Assembly (NCBI GenBank): GCA_003142475.1
Contig: PLMK01000042.1
Location: forward strand, 131,586-195,585
From: Ignavibacteriota bacterium
Lineage (GTDB): Bacteria; Bacteroidota; Ignavibacteria; UBA10030
Direction of reading: 5' to 3'
DNA length: 64,000 nt
The notes under the pieces were generated by a model. That model saw only the letters and a list, made by a program, of their open reading frames with translations. It made no database searches and had not been told where the DNA came from. Positions 28,696 through 53,415 of the stretch are shown piece after piece. The position numbers and the translations under genes were made by a program. Positions within the stretch are counted from its first letter, which is position 1, and each line of letters begins with the position of its first letter.

Positions 28696-29315
28696 AGGAA
28701 TCCTATTGTAAAAAGTATGTTGAAGAGGATTTTAAGGCTCCAATCTAAAGAAGTAACAAGAAATAGATTTTCTGTTGAATAATGTATGAGAATTCCTCGT
28801 AATGCAATAGTCACGAGTGTACCTGCATAATAGATCACAAAGGAAAGAAGAATCCAAAAATAGCTATGGTTCATTAAGGGCTGAATTCGATTACCTATAA
28901 CAACAAACAATGTATATCCAGCTCCAAGAGTAAGGAGAACTTGTGAAGCACTTGCCGTAACTGAATATAATCCATTCATAGGTTCAAATGTAAGTTTTGC
29001 AATAACCCAAAACAGTATATAAAGTAGCATCAACGCCTGAAAAAATCTTTTCATCCGACGCGACTCTTGCCAAATGGAAATGATTGACATAATAAACATG
29101 TATTCTATGAGATAATATACGTGTACAAGTCCTAGAGTAAATTGATATCCTCTAGCGAACCATACAAAATAAATATCTGCAGCAAATGCAACTATGAGAT
29201 AATAAAAGAGGATTTTTATTCCATCATGTAAAATCCTTATTTTAAAAATTCCAGCTCCAATCGGTAAAATCGGACTGAAGTGCGATATATAAGCAAAGAA
29301 AGGATATTGATTCAT
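28674..29315 (-). CDS. Polytopic membrane protein (5-6 TM), possibly the detached sensor module of the downstream histidine kinase
   Basis: Hydrophobic throughout; 3' end overlaps the HK start by 22 nt in another frame. Confidence 0.5.
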   Translation of the reverse strand: MNQYPFFAYISHFSPILPIGAGIFKIRILHDGIKILFYYLIVAFAADIYFVWFARGYQFTLGLVHVYYLIEYMFIMSIISIWQESRRMKRFFQALMLLYILFWVIAKLTFEPMNGLYSVTASASQVLLTLGAGYTLFVVIGNRIQPLMNHSYFWILLSFVIYYAGTLVTIALRGILIHYSTENLFLVTSLDWSLKILFNILFTIGFLCPQTRT

Positions 29316-29506
29316 CTACTAAGTTGTTTCTAAAATAAGTACTATAAGTTTTATAAGTAACTAATCAGAATGTCGTTAAATCAATAAATATACACGTTTG
29401 TTGCGGCATCTGAATTATAATGCAGTAGAGTTGCCTGGTGTACAACTCCTCCACATTATTTTATTTTAAGATAGTAAATGAATTATGCTCTTGCAATCTA
29501 TGCATG

Positions 29507-29878
29507 CTAATTACCACAAAAGGGAGGACATATGATTGTCGGACCAGCTATGAGATTTGATACCATATCTCTACCATGTTTATCAACTCCAACAATCACG
29601 AATCCAAATTTGCCGTCTGCACGCTTGCCATAATATGTGCGAACTCCAACACAGCCGGGTTGCTTCATAGTTTTTTCTACAACATCCTTTCCAATATAGT
29701 GAGCAAGCATTGCATCCGATGGCACAGAGATGCGGTGTATGTTTGTCAAGGCGGTTGCATCCTGTATTGATATTGATTGTCCTGCATTCATAGATTTATC
29801 GGTTGATGGATAGATGATGAGTACGATTGCGCTTAGTGCGAAAATCGAGATAATGGTAAGAGTTCTCTTTATAGACAT
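29507..29878 (-). CDS. Small secreted hypothetical protein (123 aa)
   Basis: N-terminal signal peptide/TM anchor; no recognisable family. Confidence 0.4.
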   Translation of the reverse strand: MSIKRTLTIISIFALSAIVLIIYPSTDKSMNAGQSISIQDATALTNIHRISVPSDAMLAHYIGKDVVEKTMKQPGCVGVRTYYGKRADGKFGFVIVGVDKHGRDMVSNLIAGPTIICPPFCGN

Positions 29879-30744
29879 TTATATTCTCCTTAAGAATAAA
29901 ATATATTTTGTGTGACTGCCAATTGACAGGATATCTTGGAACGTGAAATTCGAAAAGCAGTGCGGCAGGGAGCGACTTGGAGGGGAATTACAATTCTCAA
30001 ACATCGTGGTCCTTTCAATATAGTTTAAGATATGTGACTAAAGAAAACTATGTGTCAATTTTTCATCCAGCATGTTTCTATTAGTCTCCCTTGACTAATA
30101 TTTAAATTTAACATCCTCATAGTCCCGACAAACAAGGATGAGGTTTTCTATCATTACTGCCGCCTATATGCCAGACTGAAGCGGCACCCCGCTAAATTGG
30201 AACGCGTTATTTGATGCAAAAAGCAATATACATTCTGGCCTTGTATAACAATAGTGAAATCAACAATTATTTCTGCCGTTATTTACATATTAAGCTACAC
30301 CATTACGTACTAATTGTCTGTCGTATTTTAACCAATTGTTTGTAGCGATTTTGGTGCAAGTATTTGTCGTAAAAAACAGATAATTTGATAACATTAATAT
30401 GTTCAAGCATGAAAAATGGAATTTTATCGTTCCAATTCCTTGTTTTCTACCATATAATATGGTTTTTCGAGGTATTTATAAACAAATTCTCACTCTTTAA
30501 TTCCGTCCGATCAGCAATATGCATAATGAAATTACGGCAAAGTATTGGTGAAAATACGACATGCAGAATACTTGCTTTTCTATACGCGTTCAATGTATAT
30601 TGGGTTGCAGGGTTTTCGCACTCATAAATATGAGTTGTGAAAAATTTTAAAAGTTTTTTGTACATCAATATTATTTAAGTATACATATTAGATTCCAAAC
30701 CTGTTGGTGGCGTTCAATATGCATATGCATAGAAATCAGAGCAG

Positions 30745-31062
30745 ATGCTGAAAACTATGAACGAGGAGGATAAAAAAATGTCTACTGAAATAATTCTTCA
30801 TGAAGCAACCGCAGTCTTACAAGCTGCACTTCACCATGCATCAGAACTCTCAGAGGTTGGAGTAACTGATGACGAGTTTCTTCTTATGCGTGTTCTCATT
30901 ACGAGCGTCGCTGCGCATTCCTATACTTCGCTGGGAAAGAATATTGACTTACATGACGAAGTGCACAAACTTAAAAATTTGAAGGATGTCATTGTCAGAA
31001 CGGCGGAAAAGCGGTTTGGCCAAACAAACAAGGTGTTGGATGAATTCAGATATGTCGCATAG
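30745..31062 (+). CDS. Hypothetical protein (about 95-105 aa) in the AT-rich accessory region
   Basis: ORF only; helical composition; no homology recognised. Confidence 0.3.
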   Translation: MLKTMNEEDKKMSTEIILHEATAVLQAALHHASELSEVGVTDDEFLLMRVLITSVAAHSYTSLGKNIDLHDEVHKLKNLKDVIVRTAEKRFGQTNKVLDEFRYVA

Positions 31063-31520
31063 CAAAAATCGATTGGCTGAAATATTATGCATATAAACCT
31101 CAACCGCATCACGAATACTTAGAACTCTTGTTGCATGAGAAGCCGACTCCTGTACTCGTTTGTTTCGACAACACGAATATCATATTAACAAATCCAATTA
31201 ACTTGAATGATGTAAGTCACAGATACTGTGCACTGCGTAACCCTTATAAAAGATTACAGCTGATTTGGTCACTTCTCTCCTTCCCAACACGATATCAAAT
31301 TTTATCGGATATCCTCCCATCAAACAAGTTTATCCGACTATTGACACTAGTCAGAATGCGAAGCGGGCTGGCAGCCAGGCGGAATGGGAACGGAGTAATG
31401 TGTGGAGCACTTCTAAATTCCAATTCTATCTGCATGTAATATGGTTTTGCGCAACATCAGCAAGTTATTCATAAGACTCATTACTTCTGCATTTCACAAT
31501 TTTCATCACAGGAGAATGCT

Positions 31521-32321: not shown

Positions 32322-32588
32322 CAATGGCTTTGTAATTCCTTGGCATCAAGAACCCAACTCCGATAGATTTGTAATCTGAGATGTCTAGTGCGTATGCTGT
32401 TACGCCCTGTTTGAATAATCTGCTCTCTCCTTTAAAAGTTTGTATATCTCAAGTCACTTTTGTAGATTAGAACCAGTTCTACTATGATATGTACACGGGG
32501 AGTAGCGTGTGCATATTTACCGACGTAAAAGTTTTCCAAACATACAATGATATTAATGGGCTGAAAAGTGGAGTCTATCTAATCAGTA

Positions 32589-32600
32589 GTTAGGCGGCAT
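32589..32600. repeat. Isolated attC R' core GTTAGGCGGCAT immediately upstream of the first cassette-like ORF
   Basis: 12-mer identical to 42034-42045 and reverse-complementary to the left end (ATGCCGCCTAAC) of the element at 32907. Confidence 0.5.
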
Positions 32601-32917
32601 TGAATCATATGAATACTATCTCCCATATCAACAATTGTCATAAATGTAACGAGACAAAATCTATTCGTTCGAGTGTATTTCGACAGAACGTAAGCTATTT
32701 ATTTCGGCGGCAAGAAAAGGAGTTTCGAGGATCATTCTGTTTCCGTTGCACCTCAATTCTTTTCTTTAAGTGTACTCTTATTACTCTCATTGGAACTTGG
32801 TGGGGTGTTATTGGTGCACTTATCGGACCCGTTTACATTATTCAGAACATTTATTTCTATTTAAAAAGTGTTTTAAGTTTTCTCTTTAGCAATGAAGAAA
32901 CAACTAATGCCGCCTAA
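32600..32917 (+). CDS. Cassette-like ORF: small Cys-rich (CxxC...CxxC) protein with a C-terminal TM segment
   Basis: Starts (TTG 32600 or ATG 32609) right after the GTTAGGC core; stop codon TAA 32915-32917 lies inside GCCTAAC of the following attC-like element. Confidence 0.4.
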   Translation: MNHMNTISHINNCHKCNETKSIRSSVFRQNVSYLFRRQEKEFRGSFCFRCTSILFFKCTLITLIGTWWGVIGALIGPVYIIQNIYFYLKSVLSFLFSNEETTNAA

Positions 32918-33071
32918 CCAGGCGCTCAAGCAGACGGAATGAGCTCACTACAAAATTCATGGCGATCAGAGGTTTAGTACAATTTGAAAGTTATCAGCGC
33001 CGCAGTCCCGCTGTAAGGGATCCTCGATTCGACTCTTAGTCGAATCGGGACTTAGCCGCCATCCGGTAGGT
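32912..33071. repeat. attC-like recombination site A (about 160 bp imperfect inverted repeat: GCCTAAC...GGCGCTCAAG // CTTAGCCGCC...GGTAGGT)
   Basis: Left end GCCTAAC (inverse core), right end GGTAGGT (core-like); ends are mutual imperfect reverse complements; internal hairpins. Confidence 0.6.
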
Positions 33072-33112
33072 TTTATTCATATATTTTAAATAGGGCTATC
33101 AAGGAATCCAAA

Positions 33113-33601
33113 ATGCAATTCGTTTGTATCAATTCAGACCATGATTTATCAAGCGTAGTCAAGGTTCTCAACGAAGCGCATGGGACGATTGCAAAGGAAT
33201 TTGGATTTACAAAAGAAAATAATCCAACAAACAGTGCTTTTATTGATGAGCATGCTTTACGGGCACAATTAAATAAAGGTATAGAATTATATCAATTAAC
33301 AGTAAATGATAAAGTTATCGGTTGCATAGCAATTGAAAAATCGGCAAAAGAAATTGACACTTATTATATTGAGAAGGTTTCTATAATTCCAGAGTATAGA
33401 CATCAAGGATATGGAATTAAAATAATGGAATATGCTGCCGAAAAGATCAAGGCACAAAACGGTAAATGGATTTCAATAGCTTTAATTGATTCAAATACCA
33501 GACTTAAAAATTGGTATTCAAAGCAAGGATTTAAAGAAACAGGAACAAGGGATTTTCCTCATTTGCCATTTAGAGTTTGCTTTATGAAAAAAGAAGTATA
33601 A
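33113..33601 (+). CDS. Cassette-like ORF: GNAT family acetyltransferase
   Basis: GNAT motif-A region HQGYGIKIM; flanked on both sides by attC-like elements. Confidence 0.8.
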   Translation: MQFVCINSDHDLSSVVKVLNEAHGTIAKEFGFTKENNPTNSAFIDEHALRAQLNKGIELYQLTVNDKVIGCIAIEKSAKEIDTYYIEKVSIIPEYRHQGYGIKIMEYAAEKIKAQNGKWISIALIDSNTRLKNWYSKQGFKETGTRDFPHLPFRVCFMKKEV

Positions 33602-33603
33602 AA

Positions 33604-33769
33604 CCTGACTAGGTGCTCAAGTCCCGCTGTCAATATAAATTCTTATATAGCGGGATGTCCAAGATGGCGCTGCAAGCGACAGCGCCTATGGCGCACACTC
33701 GGTTTGTCCAGAAGAAAGAATCACACGAAGAGTGATACAATATTTTTCAAGGAGTGCCATTTCGTTGGG
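33604..33769. repeat. attC-like recombination site B (divergent copy of the same family)
   Basis: Starts 2 nt after the GNAT stop; shares GGTGCTCAAG, GGCGC...GCGCC and TGTCCAGAAGAAAGAATCACACGAAGAGTGATAC modules with copies C-E; right end GTTGGGC (33763-33769) fits GTTRRRY. Confidence 0.5.
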
Positions 33770-33897
33770 CAACCACATAGGAGAGCACAAGATGAAAAAG
33801 GTGATGTATTATTTCTTTTGGATTGGAATTTGATCCCTGGGAATAGATCTAAGAACACTTAGATTACTATATTTCTATACTCAAATAGGATAGCATT

Positions 33898-34602
33898 ATG
33901 AAAATAACAACATTCTATTGCATCATTTTGTGTTTGTATTCGTTTGCGCTGAAAGCACAGGATAGTACAAATAATACAAAGATCGATACATTGCTTTTAT
34001 ATCAAAAGAAAATGTTATCGCAGCAGGAAAAAATATATAACGAAATAGTTCGCTATAAAGAACCGCTCGAGAATAAAAAATTTGGTATTGAATTCAATCC
34101 CGCATATTTTTTAGTAAGCAGCTCACGTTCATATACGGTTTTAAGCGGAGGATTTTCACTTTTTGATGTGGATAGACATGCAGAAATTGCATTTCCGATA
34201 TTTTATCAAAATGGAACAGACGAAAACTCTGGAAATCATGAGTTAACACTTTGGAACCAGGATATAGTTTATAGGAAATTCTTGGGACAACACCAAGACG
34301 GATTTTATATTGAGGGGGGATTGCGTTATACGCATATCAGAGGAGAAGAAGGCGGTGATCTATCACTATTTGGGCTCAGCCTGTTTCCATCATCATCCGC
34401 ACCAATTATAACAACAGATAAAGTCGGAGCGATGTTCGGTATCGGATATAGATATTTTTCAACTTCAGGTATTTATTGGGGAATAAGTTTTGTATGGGGA
34501 TCATATTTTTCTGCTGATAAGCGTACAATACAAGGAATCATAGGTGATGATACGAAAACAATAATAGACTTTGAGATATTAAAATTTGGTTATGCATTCT
34601 AG
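33898..34602 (+). CDS. Outer-membrane beta-barrel protein (about 8-10 strands), family unknown
   Basis: Signal peptide; alternating aromatic beta pattern; C-terminal ...FGYAF. Confidence 0.5.
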   Translation: MKITTFYCIILCLYSFALKAQDSTNNTKIDTLLLYQKKMLSQQEKIYNEIVRYKEPLENKKFGIEFNPAYFLVSSSRSYTVLSGGFSLFDVDRHAEIAFPIFYQNGTDENSGNHELTLWNQDIVYRKFLGQHQDGFYIEGGLRYTHIRGEEGGDLSLFGLSLFPSSSAPIITTDKVGAMFGIGYRYFSTSGIYWGISFVWGSYFSADKRTIQGIIGDDTKTIIDFEILKFGYAF

Positions 34603-34664
34603 CTGCGTTAAACTGATCGTTCCCTAATGTGGCTGTGTTTTAAATCCATGAGAGAATTCTCTAT

Positions 34665-35195
34665 ATGCCAACAGAAGAAGAATTAAAATATCCAATCGGA
34701 AAATTTGTATTTAAACAACCAACACCTGAACTTCGAACAGAATATATTCGTCAGTTTAGAACCGCTCCACCTCTTTTATATGATGCTGTTAAAAATCTCA
34801 CTGAGGATCAACTCCTCAACACATATCGTCCTGGCGGTTGGACTCTTGCTCAGGTTGTGCATCATTTAGTTGAATCAGATGTCAATGCCTATCCTCGACT
34901 TAAGTATGCTCTTACGATAGATGTGCCGGATGTGATGGTGGCAGAACAAGGGTTGTGGGCAGAATTACCCGATGCAAAATCTCCATCAATTGATTTGTCG
35001 TTGGCTCTGTTCGGAGCAATCCGTAATCGTTGGGTAGAAGCATTTGAATCGCTTGACTCAAGTTCTTTCGATCGACAATGGCGGCATTCTCGATATGGCG
35101 TGTTGACGGTCGACACTTTGCTCCAGCAGTATGCATGGCATGCCCAGCATCATACCGCTCAAATAAGCAGCCTTCGAAGACGCATGGGTTGGTAG
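34665..35195 (+). CDS. DinB_2/YfiT-family metal-dependent hydrolase (bacillithiol-transferase-like fold)
   Basis: Conserved His triad context: VVHHLVESD, AWHAQHHTAQI. Confidence 0.7.
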   Translation: MPTEEELKYPIGKFVFKQPTPELRTEYIRQFRTAPPLLYDAVKNLTEDQLLNTYRPGGWTLAQVVHHLVESDVNAYPRLKYALTIDVPDVMVAEQGLWAELPDAKSPSIDLSLALFGAIRNRWVEAFESLDSSSFDRQWRHSRYGVLTVDTLLQQYAWHAQHHTAQISSLRRRMGW

Positions 35196-41815: not shown

Positions 41816-42018
41816 CGCCTTGTGATAGCTTTTTTATTAGTCGTTCTTTTTTTTATCTTGATACAAAAGATCAATAAATGTGATTGATTGACATTTCGGG
41901 GAATTGCAGATAATGATTTTAATCGTCGTTTTTCTTCAAAGTACTTTGGTTCTTAATAATAAACTTTTCAGTATGAACTTGTTTCGTCATCTACATTTTG
42001 ATAATATTCAGCATAGTG

Positions 42019-42045
42019 GCTTAGCCGCCATCCGTTAGGCGGCAT
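42019..42045. repeat. Right half (L'-R') of an attC-like site: CTTAGCCGCCATCCGTTAGGCGGCAT; left half not found
   Basis: Near-identical to the right end of element A (33049-33071); contains consensus core GTTAGGC at 42034-42040; sits 38 bp upstream of the first cassette ORF. Confidence 0.5.
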
Positions 42046-42082
42046 TTTCTATGACATTGTGTAGAATTATGGGAGATTTGAG

Positions 42083-42451
42083 ATGCCCGACGTGAAGTTT
42101 GAAGATCATGGTAATAAAAAAATACTTCTCATAGATTTTTCAAATGCCAAAGACAGTCAAGGTATTGTTGATACAGCAGAAGAAGTCATGCGGCTTGTTC
42201 GCTCGATCAATCAGCAACGGTCAATTCGTGGAATGCTTGATCTTTCTGGTACACCCTTGAATAAAGTCGTCAGAGAGACTATGAGAAAAATGTCTAAGAA
42301 CAATGGACCATATATGAAATTAGTTGCTTTTGTTGGGCTTGGCATCCTTTTATCTCCTTTGTTCAAGGTACTGTTATTTGTGAGCGGGAAATCAAATCAC
42401 AGAGTGTTCAGTACAAGACACGATGCATTCGATTGGTTAGTCGGGAACTAA
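42083..42451 (+). CDS. Cassette-like ORF: hypothetical protein (122 aa)
   Basis: Own RBS (GGGAG); followed 14 bp later by attC-like element C. Confidence 0.45.
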   Translation: MPDVKFEDHGNKKILLIDFSNAKDSQGIVDTAEEVMRLVRSINQQRSIRGMLDLSGTPLNKVVRETMRKMSKNNGPYMKLVAFVGLGILLSPLFKVLLFVSGKSNHRVFSTRHDAFDWLVGN

Positions 42452-42465
42452 AAAATAGAAATGCC

Positions 42466-42665
42466 GCCTACCCAGGCGCTCAAGTGGCGCCGGAAGCGCT
42501 ATGGCGCCTAAAGCGCTCATTCGGCTTATCCAAAAGAATGAATCACGCGAAGCGTGATACTAACATTATTTAAAAATGGTGAATGAATTTGGTTCGTTTT
42601 GTGTATATTGTGCGCCAAAGGCGCAAAAGTTATCAGCGTGGCAGCTTAGCGCCCGTCCGATAGGC
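42466..42665. repeat. attC-like recombination site C (200 bp)
   Basis: Left GCCTACC-CAGGCGCTCAAG, right CTTAGCGCCCGTCC-GATAGGC; contains a perfect ATCACGCGAAGCGTGAT hairpin; next ORF starts 8 bp downstream. Confidence 0.6.
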
Positions 42666-42672
42666 AGCTATT

Positions 42673-43080
42673 ATGAAAACACAAATGACAAAGCAGATTA
42701 TCTACAATTTTGTTGAGGCAATCAACGAACATAACGTTGACAAAATCTGTTCGCTCATGACAGACGATCATAAATTCATTGATTCTCAGGGCAACGAAGC
42801 TGTAGGTAAAGAGCAAATGAGGGCAGGATGGATTGGATACTTTCAATTGTTTCCCGATTATAAAGTCGAAATTACAGAATTGTTTTTTAATGGAAACACT
42901 GCTGCAGTGTTTGGTTTTGCAGGCGGCACATTTCAAGGATTGAGTGATAAGAAGGAAAATTATTGGTATCTGCCTGCTTCGTGGAAAGCGATTACCAAGG
43001 ATGGAAAAATTCATTTGTGGCAAGTTTATGCTGATTCAAAAATTCCTTATGACATTATCAATGCAAGCAAAACACAATAG
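42673..43080 (+). CDS. Cassette-like ORF: SnoaL/NTF2-like (ketosteroid isomerase-fold) protein
   Basis: SnoaL-like pattern (IDSQGNEAVGKEQMRAGWIGYF...); stop TAG 43078-43080 abuts attC-like element D. Confidence 0.65.
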   Translation: MKTQMTKQIIYNFVEAINEHNVDKICSLMTDDHKFIDSQGNEAVGKEQMRAGWIGYFQLFPDYKVEITELFFNGNTAAVFGFAGGTFQGLSDKKENYWYLPASWKAITKDGKIHLWQVYADSKIPYDIINASKTQ

Positions 43081-43082
43081 CT

Positions 43083-43230
43083 GCCTACTCAGGCGCTCAC
43101 TCGGCTTGTCCAAAAGAATGAATCACGCGAAGCGTGATACTAATATTATTTAAGAATGGTGAATGAATTTGGTTCGTTATCAAAATATTGATAGTTATCA
43201 GCGCCGCAACTTAGCGCCCGTACGTTAGGC
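43083..43230. repeat. attC-like recombination site D (148 bp; canonical GTTAGGC core at 43224-43230)
   Basis: Left GCCTACT-CAGGCGCTCAC, right TTAGCGCCCGTAC-GTTAGGC; same ATCACGCGAAGCGTGAT hairpin. Confidence 0.65.
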
Positions 43231-43268
43231 AGCAAAACGTTCTTCAACAAATACAGGAGGATAATCCA

Positions 43269-43625
43269 ATGGGTGCTTTTACTCTTCTTTCGATGATACC
43301 GTGGGATACAATCTTCAAATACAGTCCGATTATTGTTGAAGCTGGCCAAAAGATTTTCAACAGTGTCAACAAATATTTCGGGAATACTTTGAAAGAAAGC
43401 GGCAAACCCAAAAAGGCTTCATTAGAACAATTAGATAAAAGAATAAAACTCTTAGAACAAAATGAACTTGAACAAGCGGATCTGATTGAAAAAATTGCTG
43501 TTCAGATAAACGAACTATCTATCGCCGCCAAGATTATTTCAAATAGAACATTGCTTGCACTTTCTATTTCATCTTTGTCGTTGGTTATCTCACTTGTTTT
43601 ACTTGTGATAAGAGTAGTAAGATAA
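43269..43625 (+). CDS. Cassette-like ORF: hypothetical tail-anchored membrane protein (118 aa)
   Basis: Strong RBS AGGAGG; C-terminal TM helix; stop TAA 43623-43625 followed by attC-like element E. Confidence 0.4.
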   Translation: MGAFTLLSMIPWDTIFKYSPIIVEAGQKIFNSVNKYFGNTLKESGKPKKASLEQLDKRIKLLEQNELEQADLIEKIAVQINELSIAAKIISNRTLLALSISSLSLVISLVLLVIRVVR

Positions 43626-43635
43626 TCGTTGTGCT

Positions 43636-43835
43636 GCCTATCCAGGTACTCCAGCTCGGCTTGTCCAGAAGAATGAATCACGCGAAGCGTGATACTAACA
43701 TTATTTAAAAATAGTGAATGAATTTGGTTCGTTATCAAAATATTGAAAGTTATCAGTGCGTCCGTTCCACATTTCAGGTGCAATGCAATCGCTTAGCGTT
43801 AAGAACGCAACAGACTTTGCACCTGTCCATTAGGC
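43636..43835. repeat. attC-like recombination site E (200 bp)
   Basis: Left GCCTATC-CAGG, conserved core with ATCACGCGAAGCGTGAT hairpin, right ATTAGGC; an extra GGTGCAA...TTGCACC hairpin is inserted. Confidence 0.55.
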
Positions 43836-43868: not shown

Positions 43869-44243
43869 ATGTTAACAACACTACTCTTATTCGGCGGACT
43901 TTATTGTTTCGCATTTTCAGTATTTCATATTCTTTTTTGGAAGATCTTTCGTTGGCGTCAGGATTTGCACCGACTTTCACCAACGAATCGTGCTATCATG
44001 CAGATTCTTAACATGCGATTGATCTATATTTTTGTGTTTTTTGGTGTCATATCAATTGTCTTTCAGAACGAACTTCTGTTCACGGCATTTGGTAGATTCG
44101 TTATCATTGTTATTGCGGTGTTCTGGTTCATGCGAGCAATTGAACAGGTCATGTTCTTTGGTATCAAGAATTATGTTTCATTCGCATTATTTATTGTATT
44201 CCTTTTAGGTGGTGGACTCTATGCGTTGCTATTAATTGCATAA
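43869..44243 (+). CDS. Cassette-like ORF: 4-TM membrane protein (124 aa)
   Basis: RBS AGGAG; hydrophobic; no downstream attC-like site (array interrupted by transposase remnant). Confidence 0.45.
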   Translation: MLTTLLLFGGLYCFAFSVFHILFWKIFRWRQDLHRLSPTNRAIMQILNMRLIYIFVFFGVISIVFQNELLFTAFGRFVIIVIAVFWFMRAIEQVMFFGIKNYVSFALFIVFLLGGGLYALLLIA

Positions 44244-44354: not shown

Positions 44355-44576
44355 ATGAGAATGAACATGCTACGGCTTACCCGGCTAACCCTTAGTTTTA
44401 GTAAAAAGTTAGAGAAACACAAAGCCGCTATTGTATTACATTTCTTTCATTATAACTTTATGCGTATCCATCAAACGCTTAGAGTAACACCGGCAATGCA
44501 AGCATGTGTATCAAATCACATTGGGAACTGGCAGGAATTCTTAGGAATCGCAAAAACAGCAAGAAAGGCGGCATAA
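44355..44576 (+). pseudogene. C-terminal remnant of a DDE transposase (IS1/IS1595-like), 5'-truncated
   Basis: HFFHYNFMRIHQTLRVTPAMQACVSNHIGNW resembles the YNFxRxHxxL...TPAM...W tail of DDE transposases; no N-terminal catalytic region upstream. Confidence 0.5.
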
Positions 44577-44809
44577 ATAACAACTAATAAATAGAATTGA
44601 CCAGTCCAATAATACAATTGCAGCTTTTTTCCGTCAAAATAGGAGGTATATTGGTGGCATGTTTTTGGTGGTTAAGATATAATAATATTACATAATAGGA
44701 GGGGTAATAATTTGACAAAACTTAATTTTTTATTACCTTGCGTAGCAACCTACCCGCCTCATAAGATGGTAAATGAAACTAAATAATCGTCTCAAACGTT
44801 TTATTTAGT

Positions 44810-45148
44810 ATGGAAAAAGAACAAATGGCAAAAAAACAAATTGCGCTAAGAATAATCGGACAAAAAAAGGGCAGCATCTATATAGCTGTTTGCCTTGAAA
44901 CCGATATCTTTATTCAAGCCTCTTCCGTTCCAGAAATAAAGAGAAAAATGGCAGATGCTCTTACGGCGTACTTTAAATCATTTAGTTCAGACGAGATAGA
45001 ACAAGGTGTCTTTTTTAGAAAAGCACCTATGAAGTATCGGATTGGTTGGCATTTATTGACGGTTGTTAGTTTTACAGGTAAAATTTTAAAATCAATAAAC
45101 TTTAATGCCAATTACGATCCATACTCCCAACATCTAAAGCTTGCCTAA
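44810..45148 (+). CDS. hicB: HicB-like antitoxin (UPF0150 fold)
   Basis: YIAVCLETDIFIQASSVPEIKRKMADALTAYF resembles the HicB N-terminal domain; overlaps the hicA-like gene by 8 nt. Confidence 0.5.
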   Translation: MEKEQMAKKQIALRIIGQKKGSIYIAVCLETDIFIQASSVPEIKRKMADALTAYFKSFSSDEIEQGVFFRKAPMKYRIGWHLLTVVSFTGKILKSINFNANYDPYSQHLKLA

Positions 45149-45437
45149 ACAATATCCGCCCTTAACCCCTGAAGAAGTATTGGCAATTTTAAAAGTGCAG
45201 GGCTTTACATTGGACAATACTGTCGGTAGCCATGCGAACCATGTCGGTTATACCAACGACATTAAAAGAAGAGTCACGGTAGACCTAAAGATCAAAGGCT
45301 ACTCTCCAGAGTTGATGAAAAGCATGATAAGGCAGAGCGGTTTATCCCGTGAAGATTTTTATTGTTCAACCAAAAAAACAGCTGTAAAAATTAATATGAG
45401 AAAAAAGGTTATTAAGACTGAGATTGCCCCAAAGTAA
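45141..45437 (+). CDS. hicA: HicA-family mRNA interferase toxin
   Basis: VLAILKVQGFTLDNTVGSHANHV...IKGYSPELMKSMIRQSGL matches the HicA/YcfA signature (GSHxxx). Confidence 0.6.
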   Translation: MPKQYPPLTPEEVLAILKVQGFTLDNTVGSHANHVGYTNDIKRRVTVDLKIKGYSPELMKSMIRQSGLSREDFYCSTKKTAVKINMRKKVIKTEIAPK

Positions 45438-50546: not shown

Positions 50547-50782
50547 AAACGGGTGCAGCAGAATTTAATAATGGACTGTAGGAAAAAAATATCTTCCCGA
50601 GAATCGACGCTCATCAAGAAGCAAAGGAAGGATGATCCTCCTCAATTCTGCGACTTTTCTTGCAGGCACGCGGAATTTGCCCAGCCCGATGCAATTGGCG
50701 CATGCAGAAAAGAACTTGCTGTATTTTGTACATTATATAAAAGACACAACAATAAAAACTCCCCTTGTATCGAAAAGAAGAA

Positions 50783-52042
50783 ATGAAAACTGCAAAACAC
50801 GTGTCCCTGCAACTTAATAGAGAATTAAACGATATTGCCGAGCCATATGTAAAGCTCGTTCTTGCCGTTGGACAGCACGATGCTGACTATGTAGATGCTT
50901 ACTACGGCCCACCAGAATGGCAGGCAGAAACAAAAGCTGAAAAACAATCGTTAGACACGATACTGCAAACAGCGCTTCCTCTAAAAACTAAATTAGACAA
51001 ACTCCGCAGCAAGCAGAACGAAGAAATTTTACAGCTTCGCCATCAATACTTGAAGAAACAAATCTCGTCGCTCATTGCCCGCGTTGAAGTATTAGGCGGG
51101 AAGAAACTTTCATTCGATGAAGAAGCAAAGGCATATTATGATGTTGAACCACCGGTGTTTGCGGAAGAGCATTTCAAAAAACTTGTTGCAGAATTGGAAA
51201 CGATTGTACCGGGCAAGGGACCAATTCCCGAACGCATCGAAAATTTTCGCGAACAATTTACTATTACTCCGGACAAGTTAGATAAAGTATTTAGTGCCGC
51301 AATTTTCGAATGCCGTCAACGCGCAAAGAAGCACATCATCCTGCCGGAGAATGAAACATTCCGGTTGGAATACGTGCATAACAAAGCGTGGAGCGGCTAT
51401 AATTGGTATAAAGGGAATAACGAAAGTCTCATTCAGATTAACACAGACTTGCCGATTTTTATGGAACGCGCCATTGATCTTGCCGCACACGAAGGATATC
51501 CGGGGCATCATGTGTACAATTGTTTATTAGAGACAGCATTTGCACGTAAATTTGGATGGGTGGAGTTCACTGTATATCCTCTCTTCAGCTCGCAGTCGTT
51601 GATAGCAGAAGGGACCGCCAATTTTGGTATTGAAGTTGCGTTCCCGGGAAAAGAACGAATGGAATTTGAACGCGAGAGACTCTTCCCGCTTGCGGGGTTA
51701 GATAAAAGTCAGGCGGAAAAATATTCCAGGGTTCAGGAGCTTGCCGCAAAACTCAGTTATGCCGGCAACGAAGCCGCTCGAAAGTATCTCAACGGAGAAA
51801 TCTCGCGCGATGAGGCCGCTCAATGGCTCGTTCAATATGCTCTTATGTCGCCGGAACGCGCGCAGCAGCGCACACGTTTTTTCGATCAGTACCGCAGTTA
51901 CGTCATCAACTACAATCTCGGTTTGGATTTAGTACGGCAATACATCGAACGACGCGGCGGAACGGAAGACAAACCGGAAAAACGCTGGGAAGAATTCACT
52001 CGCCTCCTTGCATCACCTCGTTTGCCTTCGGGATTACTTTAG
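50783..52042 (+). CDS. HEGYPGHH-motif protein (DUF885-like putative metallo-hydrolase), paralog 1, no signal peptide
   Basis: About 75-90% identical over long stretches to the next gene; AAHEGYPGHHVYN motif; ATG at 50783 preferred over TTG 50765. Confidence 0.45.
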   Translation: MKTAKHVSLQLNRELNDIAEPYVKLVLAVGQHDADYVDAYYGPPEWQAETKAEKQSLDTILQTALPLKTKLDKLRSKQNEEILQLRHQYLKKQISSLIARVEVLGGKKLSFDEEAKAYYDVEPPVFAEEHFKKLVAELETIVPGKGPIPERIENFREQFTITPDKLDKVFSAAIFECRQRAKKHIILPENETFRLEYVHNKAWSGYNWYKGNNESLIQINTDLPIFMERAIDLAAHEGYPGHHVYNCLLETAFARKFGWVEFTVYPLFSSQSLIAEGTANFGIEVAFPGKERMEFERERLFPLAGLDKSQAEKYSRVQELAAKLSYAGNEAARKYLNGEISRDEAAQWLVQYALMSPERAQQRTRFFDQYRSYVINYNLGLDLVRQYIERRGGTEDKPEKRWEEFTRLLASPRLPSGLL

Positions 52043-52086
52043 ATAGTTATATTACTAGGATTTTTTTATAACATTGGGAGAAGAGA

Positions 52087-53415
52087 ATGAGACCACAACG
52101 ACTATTCATTTTAACTGTGATTTTTTTCATCGTTGCAAGTATAGGGTACAGCAAGGAAATTAATAATGTAAGGTTATATCCCGACCTTAACTCAAGACTG
52201 AATCAAATTGCTAAATCATACGTTAAACTCGTTCTTGCTGTCGGACAATACGATTCTAATTACGTCGATGCTTTTTATGGTCCCAAGGAATGGCTAACGG
52301 AAGCACAATCAGCAAAGAAGTCACTTGATGCTATCAGGCAGAAGGCGCTTCCTCTTGCAGCAGAGCTGGATTCGCTCGACAGCACCCACGAAGAAGAAAT
52401 ACTACAACTGCGTCATCAGTATTTGAAGAAGCAACTTTCGTCGCTCATCGCTCGTGTTGAGACACTGGGCGGCAAGAAGCTCTCATTCGACGAAGAGGCA
52501 AAAGCATATTACGATGTCGACCCGCCGAGTTTTCCAGAAGAACATTTCAAGAAGCTTATTGCCGAATTAGACACGATAGTCCCCGGCAAGGGATCGATTT
52601 CTGAGCGTGTCGTAAACTACCGTCGACAATTCACCATTATCCCGGATAAAGTTGACACAGTTTTACGTGTTGCTATCCGAGAGTGTCGAATTCGTACAAA
52701 GAAGCACATCAAATTATCAGACGACGAAACTTACCGGCTAGAATATGTTCACAATAAATCATGGGGCGCGTACAATTGGTATAAAGGAAACAACGAAAGC
52801 CTTATTCAAATCAATACCGACATGCCGATGCCCCTTCATTCTGTGATCGACCTTGCTGCTCACGAAGGTTATCCAGGGCATCACGTATACAATAGCTTGC
52901 TTGAAACAAATTTTGCATCTAAGCGCGGCTGGGTAGAATTTACTGTTTATGCACTTTTCAGTCCACAATCGCTCATCGCCGAGGGAACCGCAAACTTCGG
53001 CATTGAAGTCGCATTCCCCGGGAAGGAGCGAATGGAATTCGAGCGCGACGCACTCTTCCCGCTTGCGGGACTGGATAAAAGTCTGGCAGAAAAATATTCG
53101 AAAGTACAGGCTCTTATTGCAAAGCTCAGTTATGCCGAAAATGAGGCCGCACGCCGGTATCTCAATGGTGAAATCTCGGGTGATGAAGCTGCACAATGGC
53201 TTGTCAATTATGCGTTGAGGAGTCCAAAGGAGGCACAGGCGTCGATACGCTTCTTTGACCAGTACCGCAGCTACGTAATCAATTACAATCTTGGGATGGA
53301 TTTAGTCCGGCAGTACATTGAACGCCGCGGCGGAACGGAAGACAATCCGGAAAAACGCTGGGAAGAATTCACGAAACTTATTTCATCGCCGCGCTTACCG
53401 TCAGGATTACTCTAA
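52087..53415 (+). CDS. HEGYPGHH-motif protein (DUF885-like), paralog 2, with signal peptide
   Basis: Signal peptide MRPQRLFILTVIFFIVASIGYS; same motifs as paralog 1. Confidence 0.45.
   Translation: MRPQRLFILTVIFFIVASIGYSKEINNVRLYPDLNSRLNQIAKSYVKLVLAVGQYDSNYVDAFYGPKEWLTEAQSAKKSLDAIRQKALPLAAELDSLDSTHEEEILQLRHQYLKKQLSSLIARVETLGGKKLSFDEEAKAYYDVDPPSFPEEHFKKLIAELDTIVPGKGSISERVVNYRRQFTIIPDKVDTVLRVAIRECRIRTKKHIKLSDDETYRLEYVHNKSWGAYNWYKGNNESLIQINTDMPMPLHSVIDLAAHEGYPGHHVYNSLLETNFASKRGWVEFTVYALFSPQSLIAEGTANFGIEVAFPGKERMEFERDALFPLAGLDKSLAEKYSKVQALIAKLSYAENEAARRYLNGEISGDEAAQWLVNYALRSPKEAQASIRFFDQYRSYVINYNLGMDLVRQYIERRGGTEDNPEKRWEEFTKLISSPRLPSGLL

Follow-up and report, generated by a model that had tools for sequence, protein, structure and literature searches.

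A probable relic of a sedentary chromosomal integron, with decayed attC sites and an integrase gene probably deleted in large part, in an Ignavibacteriota bacterium

Introduction

What are the repeated elements that separate small, co-oriented genes in the genome of an Ignavibacteriota bacterium, and do these genes still move? The question is raised by contig PLMK01000042.1, of which we analysed a 64-kb stretch (the window; all coordinates are window positions). At 32589-33769 a preliminary description had recognised two integron gene cassettes, one for a cysteine-rich protein and one for a GNAT acetyltransferase, bounded by attC-like elements. In this study, we have compared this array with its relatives and with canonical attC sites, and we propose that the region is very probably the remnant of a sedentary chromosomal integron, which has kept its cassettes and degraded attC sites while its integrase gene has been almost entirely deleted.

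The category of clusters of attC sites lacking an integron integrase (CALINs), or degraded integrons, was reportedly defined by Cury et al. in 2016. CALINs have since been proposed to be degraded integrons, and integrons have been reported in Ignavibacteriae (Néron et al., 2022; PMC9024848); a degraded chromosomal integron is a CALIN in the sense of that study. An attC site is described as a succession of R'', L'', L' and R' boxes, with extrahelical bases, an unpaired central spacer and a variable terminal structure (PMC5027507).

Results

In the sequence read between 32000 and 34500, GTTAGGCGGCAT begins at 32589, and positions 32589-32601 are the 13-nt GTTAGGCGGCATT. The first open reading frame (ORF1) begins with the ATG at 32609 (a TTG is present at 32600), ends at 32917 and encodes 102 amino acids; its TAA stop (32915-32917) falls within GCCTAAC (32912-32918), the R'' box of attC element 1. 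This element (32912-33071, + strand, 160 nt) continues with L'' GCTCAAG and L' CTTAGC and ends with a mutated R' box, GGTAGGT. ORF1 and its own attC make up cassette 1 (32590-33065, + strand), and a perfect 13-nt inverted repeat, GTTAGGCGGCATT/AATGCCGCCTAAC, flanks ORF1 and links the start of the cassette to the R'' region. Cassette 2 (33066-33764, + strand) holds the GNAT ORF (33113-33601), flanked by the 9-nt repeat AGGTTTTAT/ATAAAACCT, and attC element 2 (33603-33770, + strand), with a mutated R'' box, ACCTGAC, and R' GTTGGGC. The motifs of the preliminary description are thus all where it had placed them, with some corrections: element 2 measures 168 nt and not 166; the canonical core GCCTAAC bounds element 1 on the left, but the left core of element 2, ACCTGAC, departs from RYYYAAC; and, of the ribosome-binding sites ascribed to both ORFs, a clear Shine-Dalgarno-like AAGGAA is found at the GNAT ORF only, ORF1 having none.

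The nature of the elements is best seen in relatives. We scanned species-representative genomes for the central hairpin module of the elements and found it in 32 loci (sequences of relatives are labelled L0xx), all of them lying within metagenome-assembled genomes (MAGs) of Ignavibacteriota or 'Bacteroidota' from peat and fen. The window's own assignment, most likely to Ignavibacteriota, follows these relatives with the shared repeat family and not a marker gene. At many of these loci the module lies inside full-length elements with intact GCCTAAC...GTTAGGC ends (GCCTAACCAGGCGCTCAAG ... CTTAGCGCCnnTCCGTTAGGC), between which single co-oriented ORFs are placed (up to seven per 8 kb). The array of L017 terminates at a conserved motif, GTCTAATCATAGTTAGGC, followed by a divergent ORF for a 319-aa integron integrase, which scores 453 bits against TIGR02249 (cut-off 265), aligns over its full length with VchIntIA (PDB 2a3v; E 8e-92) and shares 48% identity with IntI1. 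Another intact IntI (60% identical) is present at L018 and a truncated one at L016, and upstream of both genes lie the same motif and direct repeats. Since the repeat family of our elements adjoins true IntI in these relatives, real integrons of this clade have it as their attC family and the motif as their attI. At L016 (833-1021), where intI is cut off after about 63 codons with attI and the upstream direct repeats intact, integrase decay has occurred independently within the clade.

Covariance models connect this family both to canonical attC sites and to the window. A canonical model, built from 14 different attC sites of seven class 1 and class 3 plasmid integrons with only the R and L stems annotated, matches the elements of relatives over the full model (E 3e-7 to 0.03), with sites of 150-231 nt among them. 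From these matches we built a clade-specific model (R2) that contains no window sequence. R2 finds 32912-33071 at 42.3 bits (E 3.7e-10, full model), with the very boundaries that had been read by eye, and scores three sites of a second cluster at 43.3, 38.2 and 10.6 bits, all on the + strand. Similarly, hidden Markov models (HMMs) made only from the attC ends of relatives match the window at these ORF boundaries and nowhere else, always on the + strand (E 6e-6 to 0.03). With the HMMs and R2 taken together, all window copies lie 3' of co-oriented ORFs, on the + strand and in two clusters. For the left-end motif CCTRACYAGGYGCTCAAG, 0.09 occurrences are expected in the window and four are found, two of them in the second cluster.

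The two elements of array 1 differ in how they relate to this family. Element 1 combines the left half of one subtype with the right half of another, and nhmmer recovers both ends (left E 8e-6, right E 0.004). Element 2 has an interior enlarged by additional hairpins and by a degenerate copy of the central module of the family. We assign it to the family because its left end shares 83% identity with that of element 1, because it has a 41-nt module in common with cluster 2 (83-90% identity) and because the attC of the orthologous cassette at L055 is short and has an intact ACCTAAC.

An alignment of the ends alone (15 sites of relatives and five of the window) supports an R/L stem of 19 bp, composed of a 7-bp R box, an internal loop of 2 x 5 nt and a 12-bp L stem in which GCTCAAG is paired to CTT-AGC and a single C (G on the bottom strand) bulges out. 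Pairing is found in 87.6% of cells, against 19-46% when the partners are slid, and the L stem shows compensatory changes. This layout matches the one described for attC sites (PMC5027507).

At the head of the array, positions 32573-32595 (+ strand) form an attI-like simple site, GTCTATCTAATCAGTAGTTAGGC, whose R' box GTTAGGC occupies 32589-32595. The site fits the attI motif found at array heads in relatives, GTCYRTCTAATCA(G)TAGTTAGG, which stands between intI and the first cassette at L017, L018 and L016, and on this likeness we regard it as a candidate attI. Its core is identical to that of L026; we considered L026 as an orthologous locus and rejected it, the attI core alone being matched.

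A search with Pfam returned no recombinase among the neighbouring ORFs. The best match of the window to intI lies at 32376-32435, on the - strand and divergent from the array (blastn 24/29, E 0.07; tblastn E 0.3), and aligns with the first ~60 nt of intI from L017, L018 and L016 with a 1-nt gap. Position and orientation are those expected upstream of attI, and for this reason a deleted intI, of which about 60 nt (the first ~20 codons, frameshifted) are left, appears to be the likeliest reading of this segment. A low-GC (0.35), gene-poor region at 29300-31500, upstream of the C1-peptidase gene that abuts the probable remnant, may mark the rearrangement that removed the integrase.

Among the relatives, attI-like heads followed by intact attCs and without an integrase in the ~1-7 kb flanks were observed at L026 (~5740), L030 (~2812), L032 (~846) and L020 (~6899), the position of intI being occupied by an E1 dehydrogenase gene in L030 and by a PfkB kinase gene in L032. 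L017, with its integrase, belongs to the same MAG as L026, L030 and L032, which hints that several attI-headed arrays are served in trans.

Compared with those of relatives, the sites of the window are decayed. They keep 12-17 of the 19 stem pairs, against a mean of 17.6 in relatives; elements 1 and 2 have 13 each, of which only nine are Watson-Crick in element 2, and each keeps 7 of the 12 pairs of the L stem, so that the L stems are degraded but recognisable. The damage is concentrated in the AAC/GTT triplets, where mutations affect 8 of 30 cells; elsewhere in the R box they affect 1 of 40 (p 0.004), and in the inner L stem 1 of 60. When sites are ascertained through the L' box alone, GTT is the R' triplet of 41 of the 45 sites in relatives and of two of the five window sites. 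The window triplets also vary from site to site (GGT, GAT, ATT and GTT; AAC, GAC, ACC, ACT and ATC), and sites with such differing triplets should recombine poorly with each other.

The cassettes of the clade behave as those of known integrons do. Their ends are complementary past the 7-nt core, with a median exact run of 5 nt and a mode of 7-8 nt (n=37), against a median run of 0 when ends are compared across a single attC as a control (n=27). We had considered the 11-16-nt complementarity of cassette ends as a new feature and rejected it, since canonical class 1 and class 3 cassettes show an extension of about 5 nt past the core, as in the plasmid cassettes aacA4, catB3, blaOXA-129, blaGES-1, psp, aadA2 and qacL. 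End complementarity is therefore an ordinary property of cassettes and agrees further with an integron. The GNAT cassette recurs as a discrete unit at L055 among other neighbours (96% nucleotide and 94% amino-acid identity), the homology starting at the R' box and stopping just after R''/L''. The GNAT gene has a dN/dS of 0.19 and would still be under purifying selection. The exact GNAT protein is present in 44 blocks of a metagenome collection, and the gene order is identical on all 24 GNAT-bearing metagenome contigs read, so the array looks fixed in the species. Together with the mismatch between triplets, this invariant gene order indicates that the cassettes are probably immobilised.

The array also extends further than the preliminary description had placed its end. 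A probable third cassette (33765-34619, + strand; its boundaries are deduced) holds a 234-aa ORF (33898-34602) followed by a vestigial R''/L'', CTGCGTTAAACTGATCG, at 34603-34619; the sequence after the stop aligns with CTGCGCCCTAACCAGTCG of relatives. Five metagenome contigs (L040, L041, L051, L054 and L043) carry homologues of this gene as single cassettes with intact attCs on either side; those of L040 and L041 are 80% identical. For these reasons the stretch 32589-33769 stands as part of an array 1 that reaches at least 34613. At its distal end lies a DinB/YfiT-family gene (34665-35195, + strand; Pfam DinB_2, E 8e-20), which exceeds the NCBIfam cut-off for YfiT-family bacillithiol transferases (171.6 bits against 160). 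No recognisable attC follows this gene, and the next one, 17 nt away, is convergent.

As to the cargo, the ORF1 protein has a CxxC...CxxC motif at its N-terminus followed by hydrophobic segments; it is an ORFan, whose sole match among 5.8 billion proteins is itself, and it matched nothing in Pfam or NCBIfam. The GNAT protein matches Pfam Acetyltransf_7/10/1 (E 3e-12 to 4e-11); it lies under all curated NCBIfam cut-offs and receives no substrate assignment from NCBIfam. A scan for sigma-70 promoters gave 13 sites against 11 expected, hence no enrichment, and a terminator scan showed no enrichment either, the hairpins having no T-run 3' of them.

The same attC family forms a second cluster at 42016-43835 (+ strand), identified through repeat families D3, D5, D6 and D7, Pfam, R2 and nhmmer. 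It begins with the right half of an attC only (42016-42040), and its attCs (42466-42665, 43083-43230 and 43636-43835) separate four small co-oriented ORFs: 42083-42451, a SnoaL-like ORF at 42673-43080, 43269-43625 and 43869-44243. Its cassettes have complementary ends of 11-16 nt, and its triplets are mutated in each case (ACC/GAT, ACT/GTT and ATC/ATT). The region 3' of the cluster (44355-45437) contains a 73-aa ORF that resembles, by eye, the C-terminus of a transposase and matched nothing in Pfam or NCBIfam, and a putative HicB/HicA toxin-antitoxin pair (44810-45437), in which the HicA match is under the Pfam cut-off and HicB has none. Pairs of this kind typically accompany chromosomal integron arrays.

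Other observations concern the interior of the sites and the wider window. Within single arrays of relatives, attC length ranges from ~47-54 nt to 313-331 nt (L033, 2784-2837; L025, 313 nt on the minus strand; L033, 1841-2171), a spread explained by modular insertions in the variable terminal structure, and the longest sites (to ~330 nt) may be larger than standard finders allow. Long attC interiors contain the hairpin GAATCACGCGAAGCGTGATAC, with window copies at 33723-33743, 42545-42565, 43125-43145 and 43680-43700; the GCGAAGC within it we take to be an unusually stable DNA mini-hairpin. In relatives (L008, L013, L018, L021, L023, L024, L027, L031, L036 and L038) the same hairpin also centres an unrelated palindromic repeat of ~75 nt (..CCCAGCCGGAGGCnTAAAATT-hairpin-ATTATCAGGCTTCCAGCTG..), which we sought in the window and found to be absent. 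Finally, two adjacent paralogous genes at 50765-53415 (425 and 442 aa, 73-82% DNA identity) point to a tandem duplication.

Discussion

The comparison with relatives upholds the reading of these genes as integron gene cassettes: the relatives' arrays stand beside IntI, the canonical covariance model recognises the relatives' sites, R2 recognises element 1 (E 3.7e-10), and the GNAT gene is a discrete cassette elsewhere. Several results nevertheless weigh against an integron remnant, or against parts of that reading, and have to be set beside this evidence. In the window itself the canonical covariance model has no significant match (best E >= 1, all elements below 5 bits and element 1 at ~3 bits), and element 2 is detected neither by this model nor by R2. 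Rfam at its gathering thresholds gave no match and holds no corresponding family. The preliminary description had also suggested folding the sites: when DNA of both strands was folded without constraints, one element of cluster 2 (43083-43230) closed end to end and the others did not. The z-scores are modest, and folding by minimum free energy alone is uninformative for sites this long and decayed. As for the integrase, a complete integron is contradicted by the absence of any IntI-like ORF from the 64-kb window (tblastn with the L017 integrase), and the match to the putative intI remnant, taken alone, is marginal (E 0.07-0.3). Moreover, in some relatives (L026, L030 and L032) an integrase is missing from the neighbourhood of attI-headed arrays, and it is therefore not certain that an adjacent integrase ever existed at this array. 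Since the integrase search spans the 64-kb window, the array can be called no more than probably inactive.

One alternative is that the elements are REP-like (repetitive extragenic palindromic) or MITE-like (miniature inverted-repeat transposable element) repeats, or structured intergenic elements such as terminators, which resemble attC sites by chance. The elements are indeed long (148-200 nt), with interiors that are not simple palindromes; the hairpin GAATCACGCGAAGCGTGATAC also occurs in the unrelated palindromic repeat of relatives; and the canonical model fails in the window. However, copies are found only directly after co-oriented ORFs, in two clusters and on one strand, and the complementarity joins the ends of each cassette and not those of each element. 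The canonical attC model recognises the family in relatives, where it adjoins true IntI and attI, and terminators are contradicted by hairpins that have no T-run. We therefore regard the repeat explanation as largely refuted and as highly improbable. The preliminary description had named, as the pattern that would speak for such repeats, a silent attC model together with copies scattered regardless of ORF boundaries; the canonical model is silent in the window, but the copies are tied to ORF ends, on the + strand and in two clusters, and a check by the attC model would have given a false negative at this locus.

A closer alternative keeps the integron and questions its death: the array could be a satellite CALIN with its own attI, still active through an integrase that is encoded at another place in the genome and acts in trans. 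The relative SPRUCE 408 gives some substance to this idea, having at least three arrays with attI-like heads and no nearby integrase (L026, L030 and L032) as well as the L017 array, which has an integrase and lies on the same contig as L026. Yet in the window the triplets differ from site to site, so that micro-homology between partners is lost, the stems of array 1 are down to 13 of 19 pairs, cassette content does not vary over the 24 contigs read, and a probable remnant of intI stands at the head of the array. We consider continued activity in trans unlikely, and retain a degraded, integrase-less integron as the explanation of the locus.

Such a remnant could have formed in the following way. 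On the established mechanism of integrons, IntI would once have inserted circular cassettes serially at the candidate attI (32573-32595), by recombination between the folded bottom strand of each cassette's attC and attI, at G|TT of GTTAGGC. The resulting order would be the attI-derived GTTAGGC, ORF1, attC, GNAT, attC, the 234-aa gene, a vestigial attC and possibly the DinB gene, and the co-orientation of all these genes would allow them to be read from upstream. The integrase gene would then have been deleted, about its first 60 nt remaining. After its loss the attC sites may have decayed, with mutations in the triplets, where strand exchange needs micro-homology, with loss of stem pairs and with expansion of the interiors. 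The cassettes would now be fixed at their positions and act like any other chromosomal gene. A more speculative possibility, which we hold only tentatively and think rather improbable, is that the decay was not neutral: knocking out the triplets would let cassettes survive in integrase-less or trans-served arrays and thereby fix their cargo as ordinary chromosomal genes. It is suggested by the fact that the triplets are hit far more often than the adjacent box positions and that nearly all sites are affected. Connected with it is the idea that Ignavibacteriota integrons would be distributed systems, one IntI serving several attI-headed arrays across the chromosome.

Among known systems, the locus is closest to a CALIN, with which it has in common at least two attC-derived sites between co-oriented cassettes and no integrase nearby. 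It differs in that an attI-like head and a probable intI stub are still visible. Its sites are too decayed for our canonical attC model to call them, and IntegronFinder might therefore fail to report the locus as a CALIN. The superintegron of Vibrio cholerae, with its VCR repeats, is an example of a sedentary chromosomal integron (PMC5371416). Like it, our locus is a chromosomal array with attCs that are closely related within the clade and cargo mostly of unknown function, and the putative HicAB pair adjoining cluster 2 (44810-45437) is a further likeness. In contrast, the arrays of the window are tiny (2-4 cassettes) and form two clusters ~8.7 kb apart with housekeeping-like genes between them, the integrase is lost, and the attCs of the clade, of ~47-331 nt, carry conserved non-palindromic interior modules.

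With the cassettes of class 1 and class 3 integrons, the family has in common the box layout (RYYYAAC, ~5 nt, GCTCAAGC ... GCTTAGC, 5-8 nt, GTTRRRY), the same bulged base, as in the attC of blaIMP-45 (TTCTAACAAGTCGCTCAAGC...GCTTAGCTCGGCGTTAGAT), and the ~5-nt end complementarity past the core. Unlike them, the array of the window has no resistance gene, transposon context or integrase, and its sites have mutated triplets and much longer variable terminal structures.

In conclusion, the element is real but of an ordinary kind. With it, a poorly studied and uncultivated lineage gains a documented case of a degraded chromosomal integron. No clinical relevance is evident for the cargo of the array, a zinc-ribbon-like ORFan membrane protein and a GNAT. 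The canonical attC model can miss such relics, and comparison with relatives together with a clade-specific model recovers them. The very long attCs, the integrase-less attI-headed arrays and the decay focused on the triplets bear on how cassettes become permanent residents of a genome; none of these features alters the current picture of integron biology.

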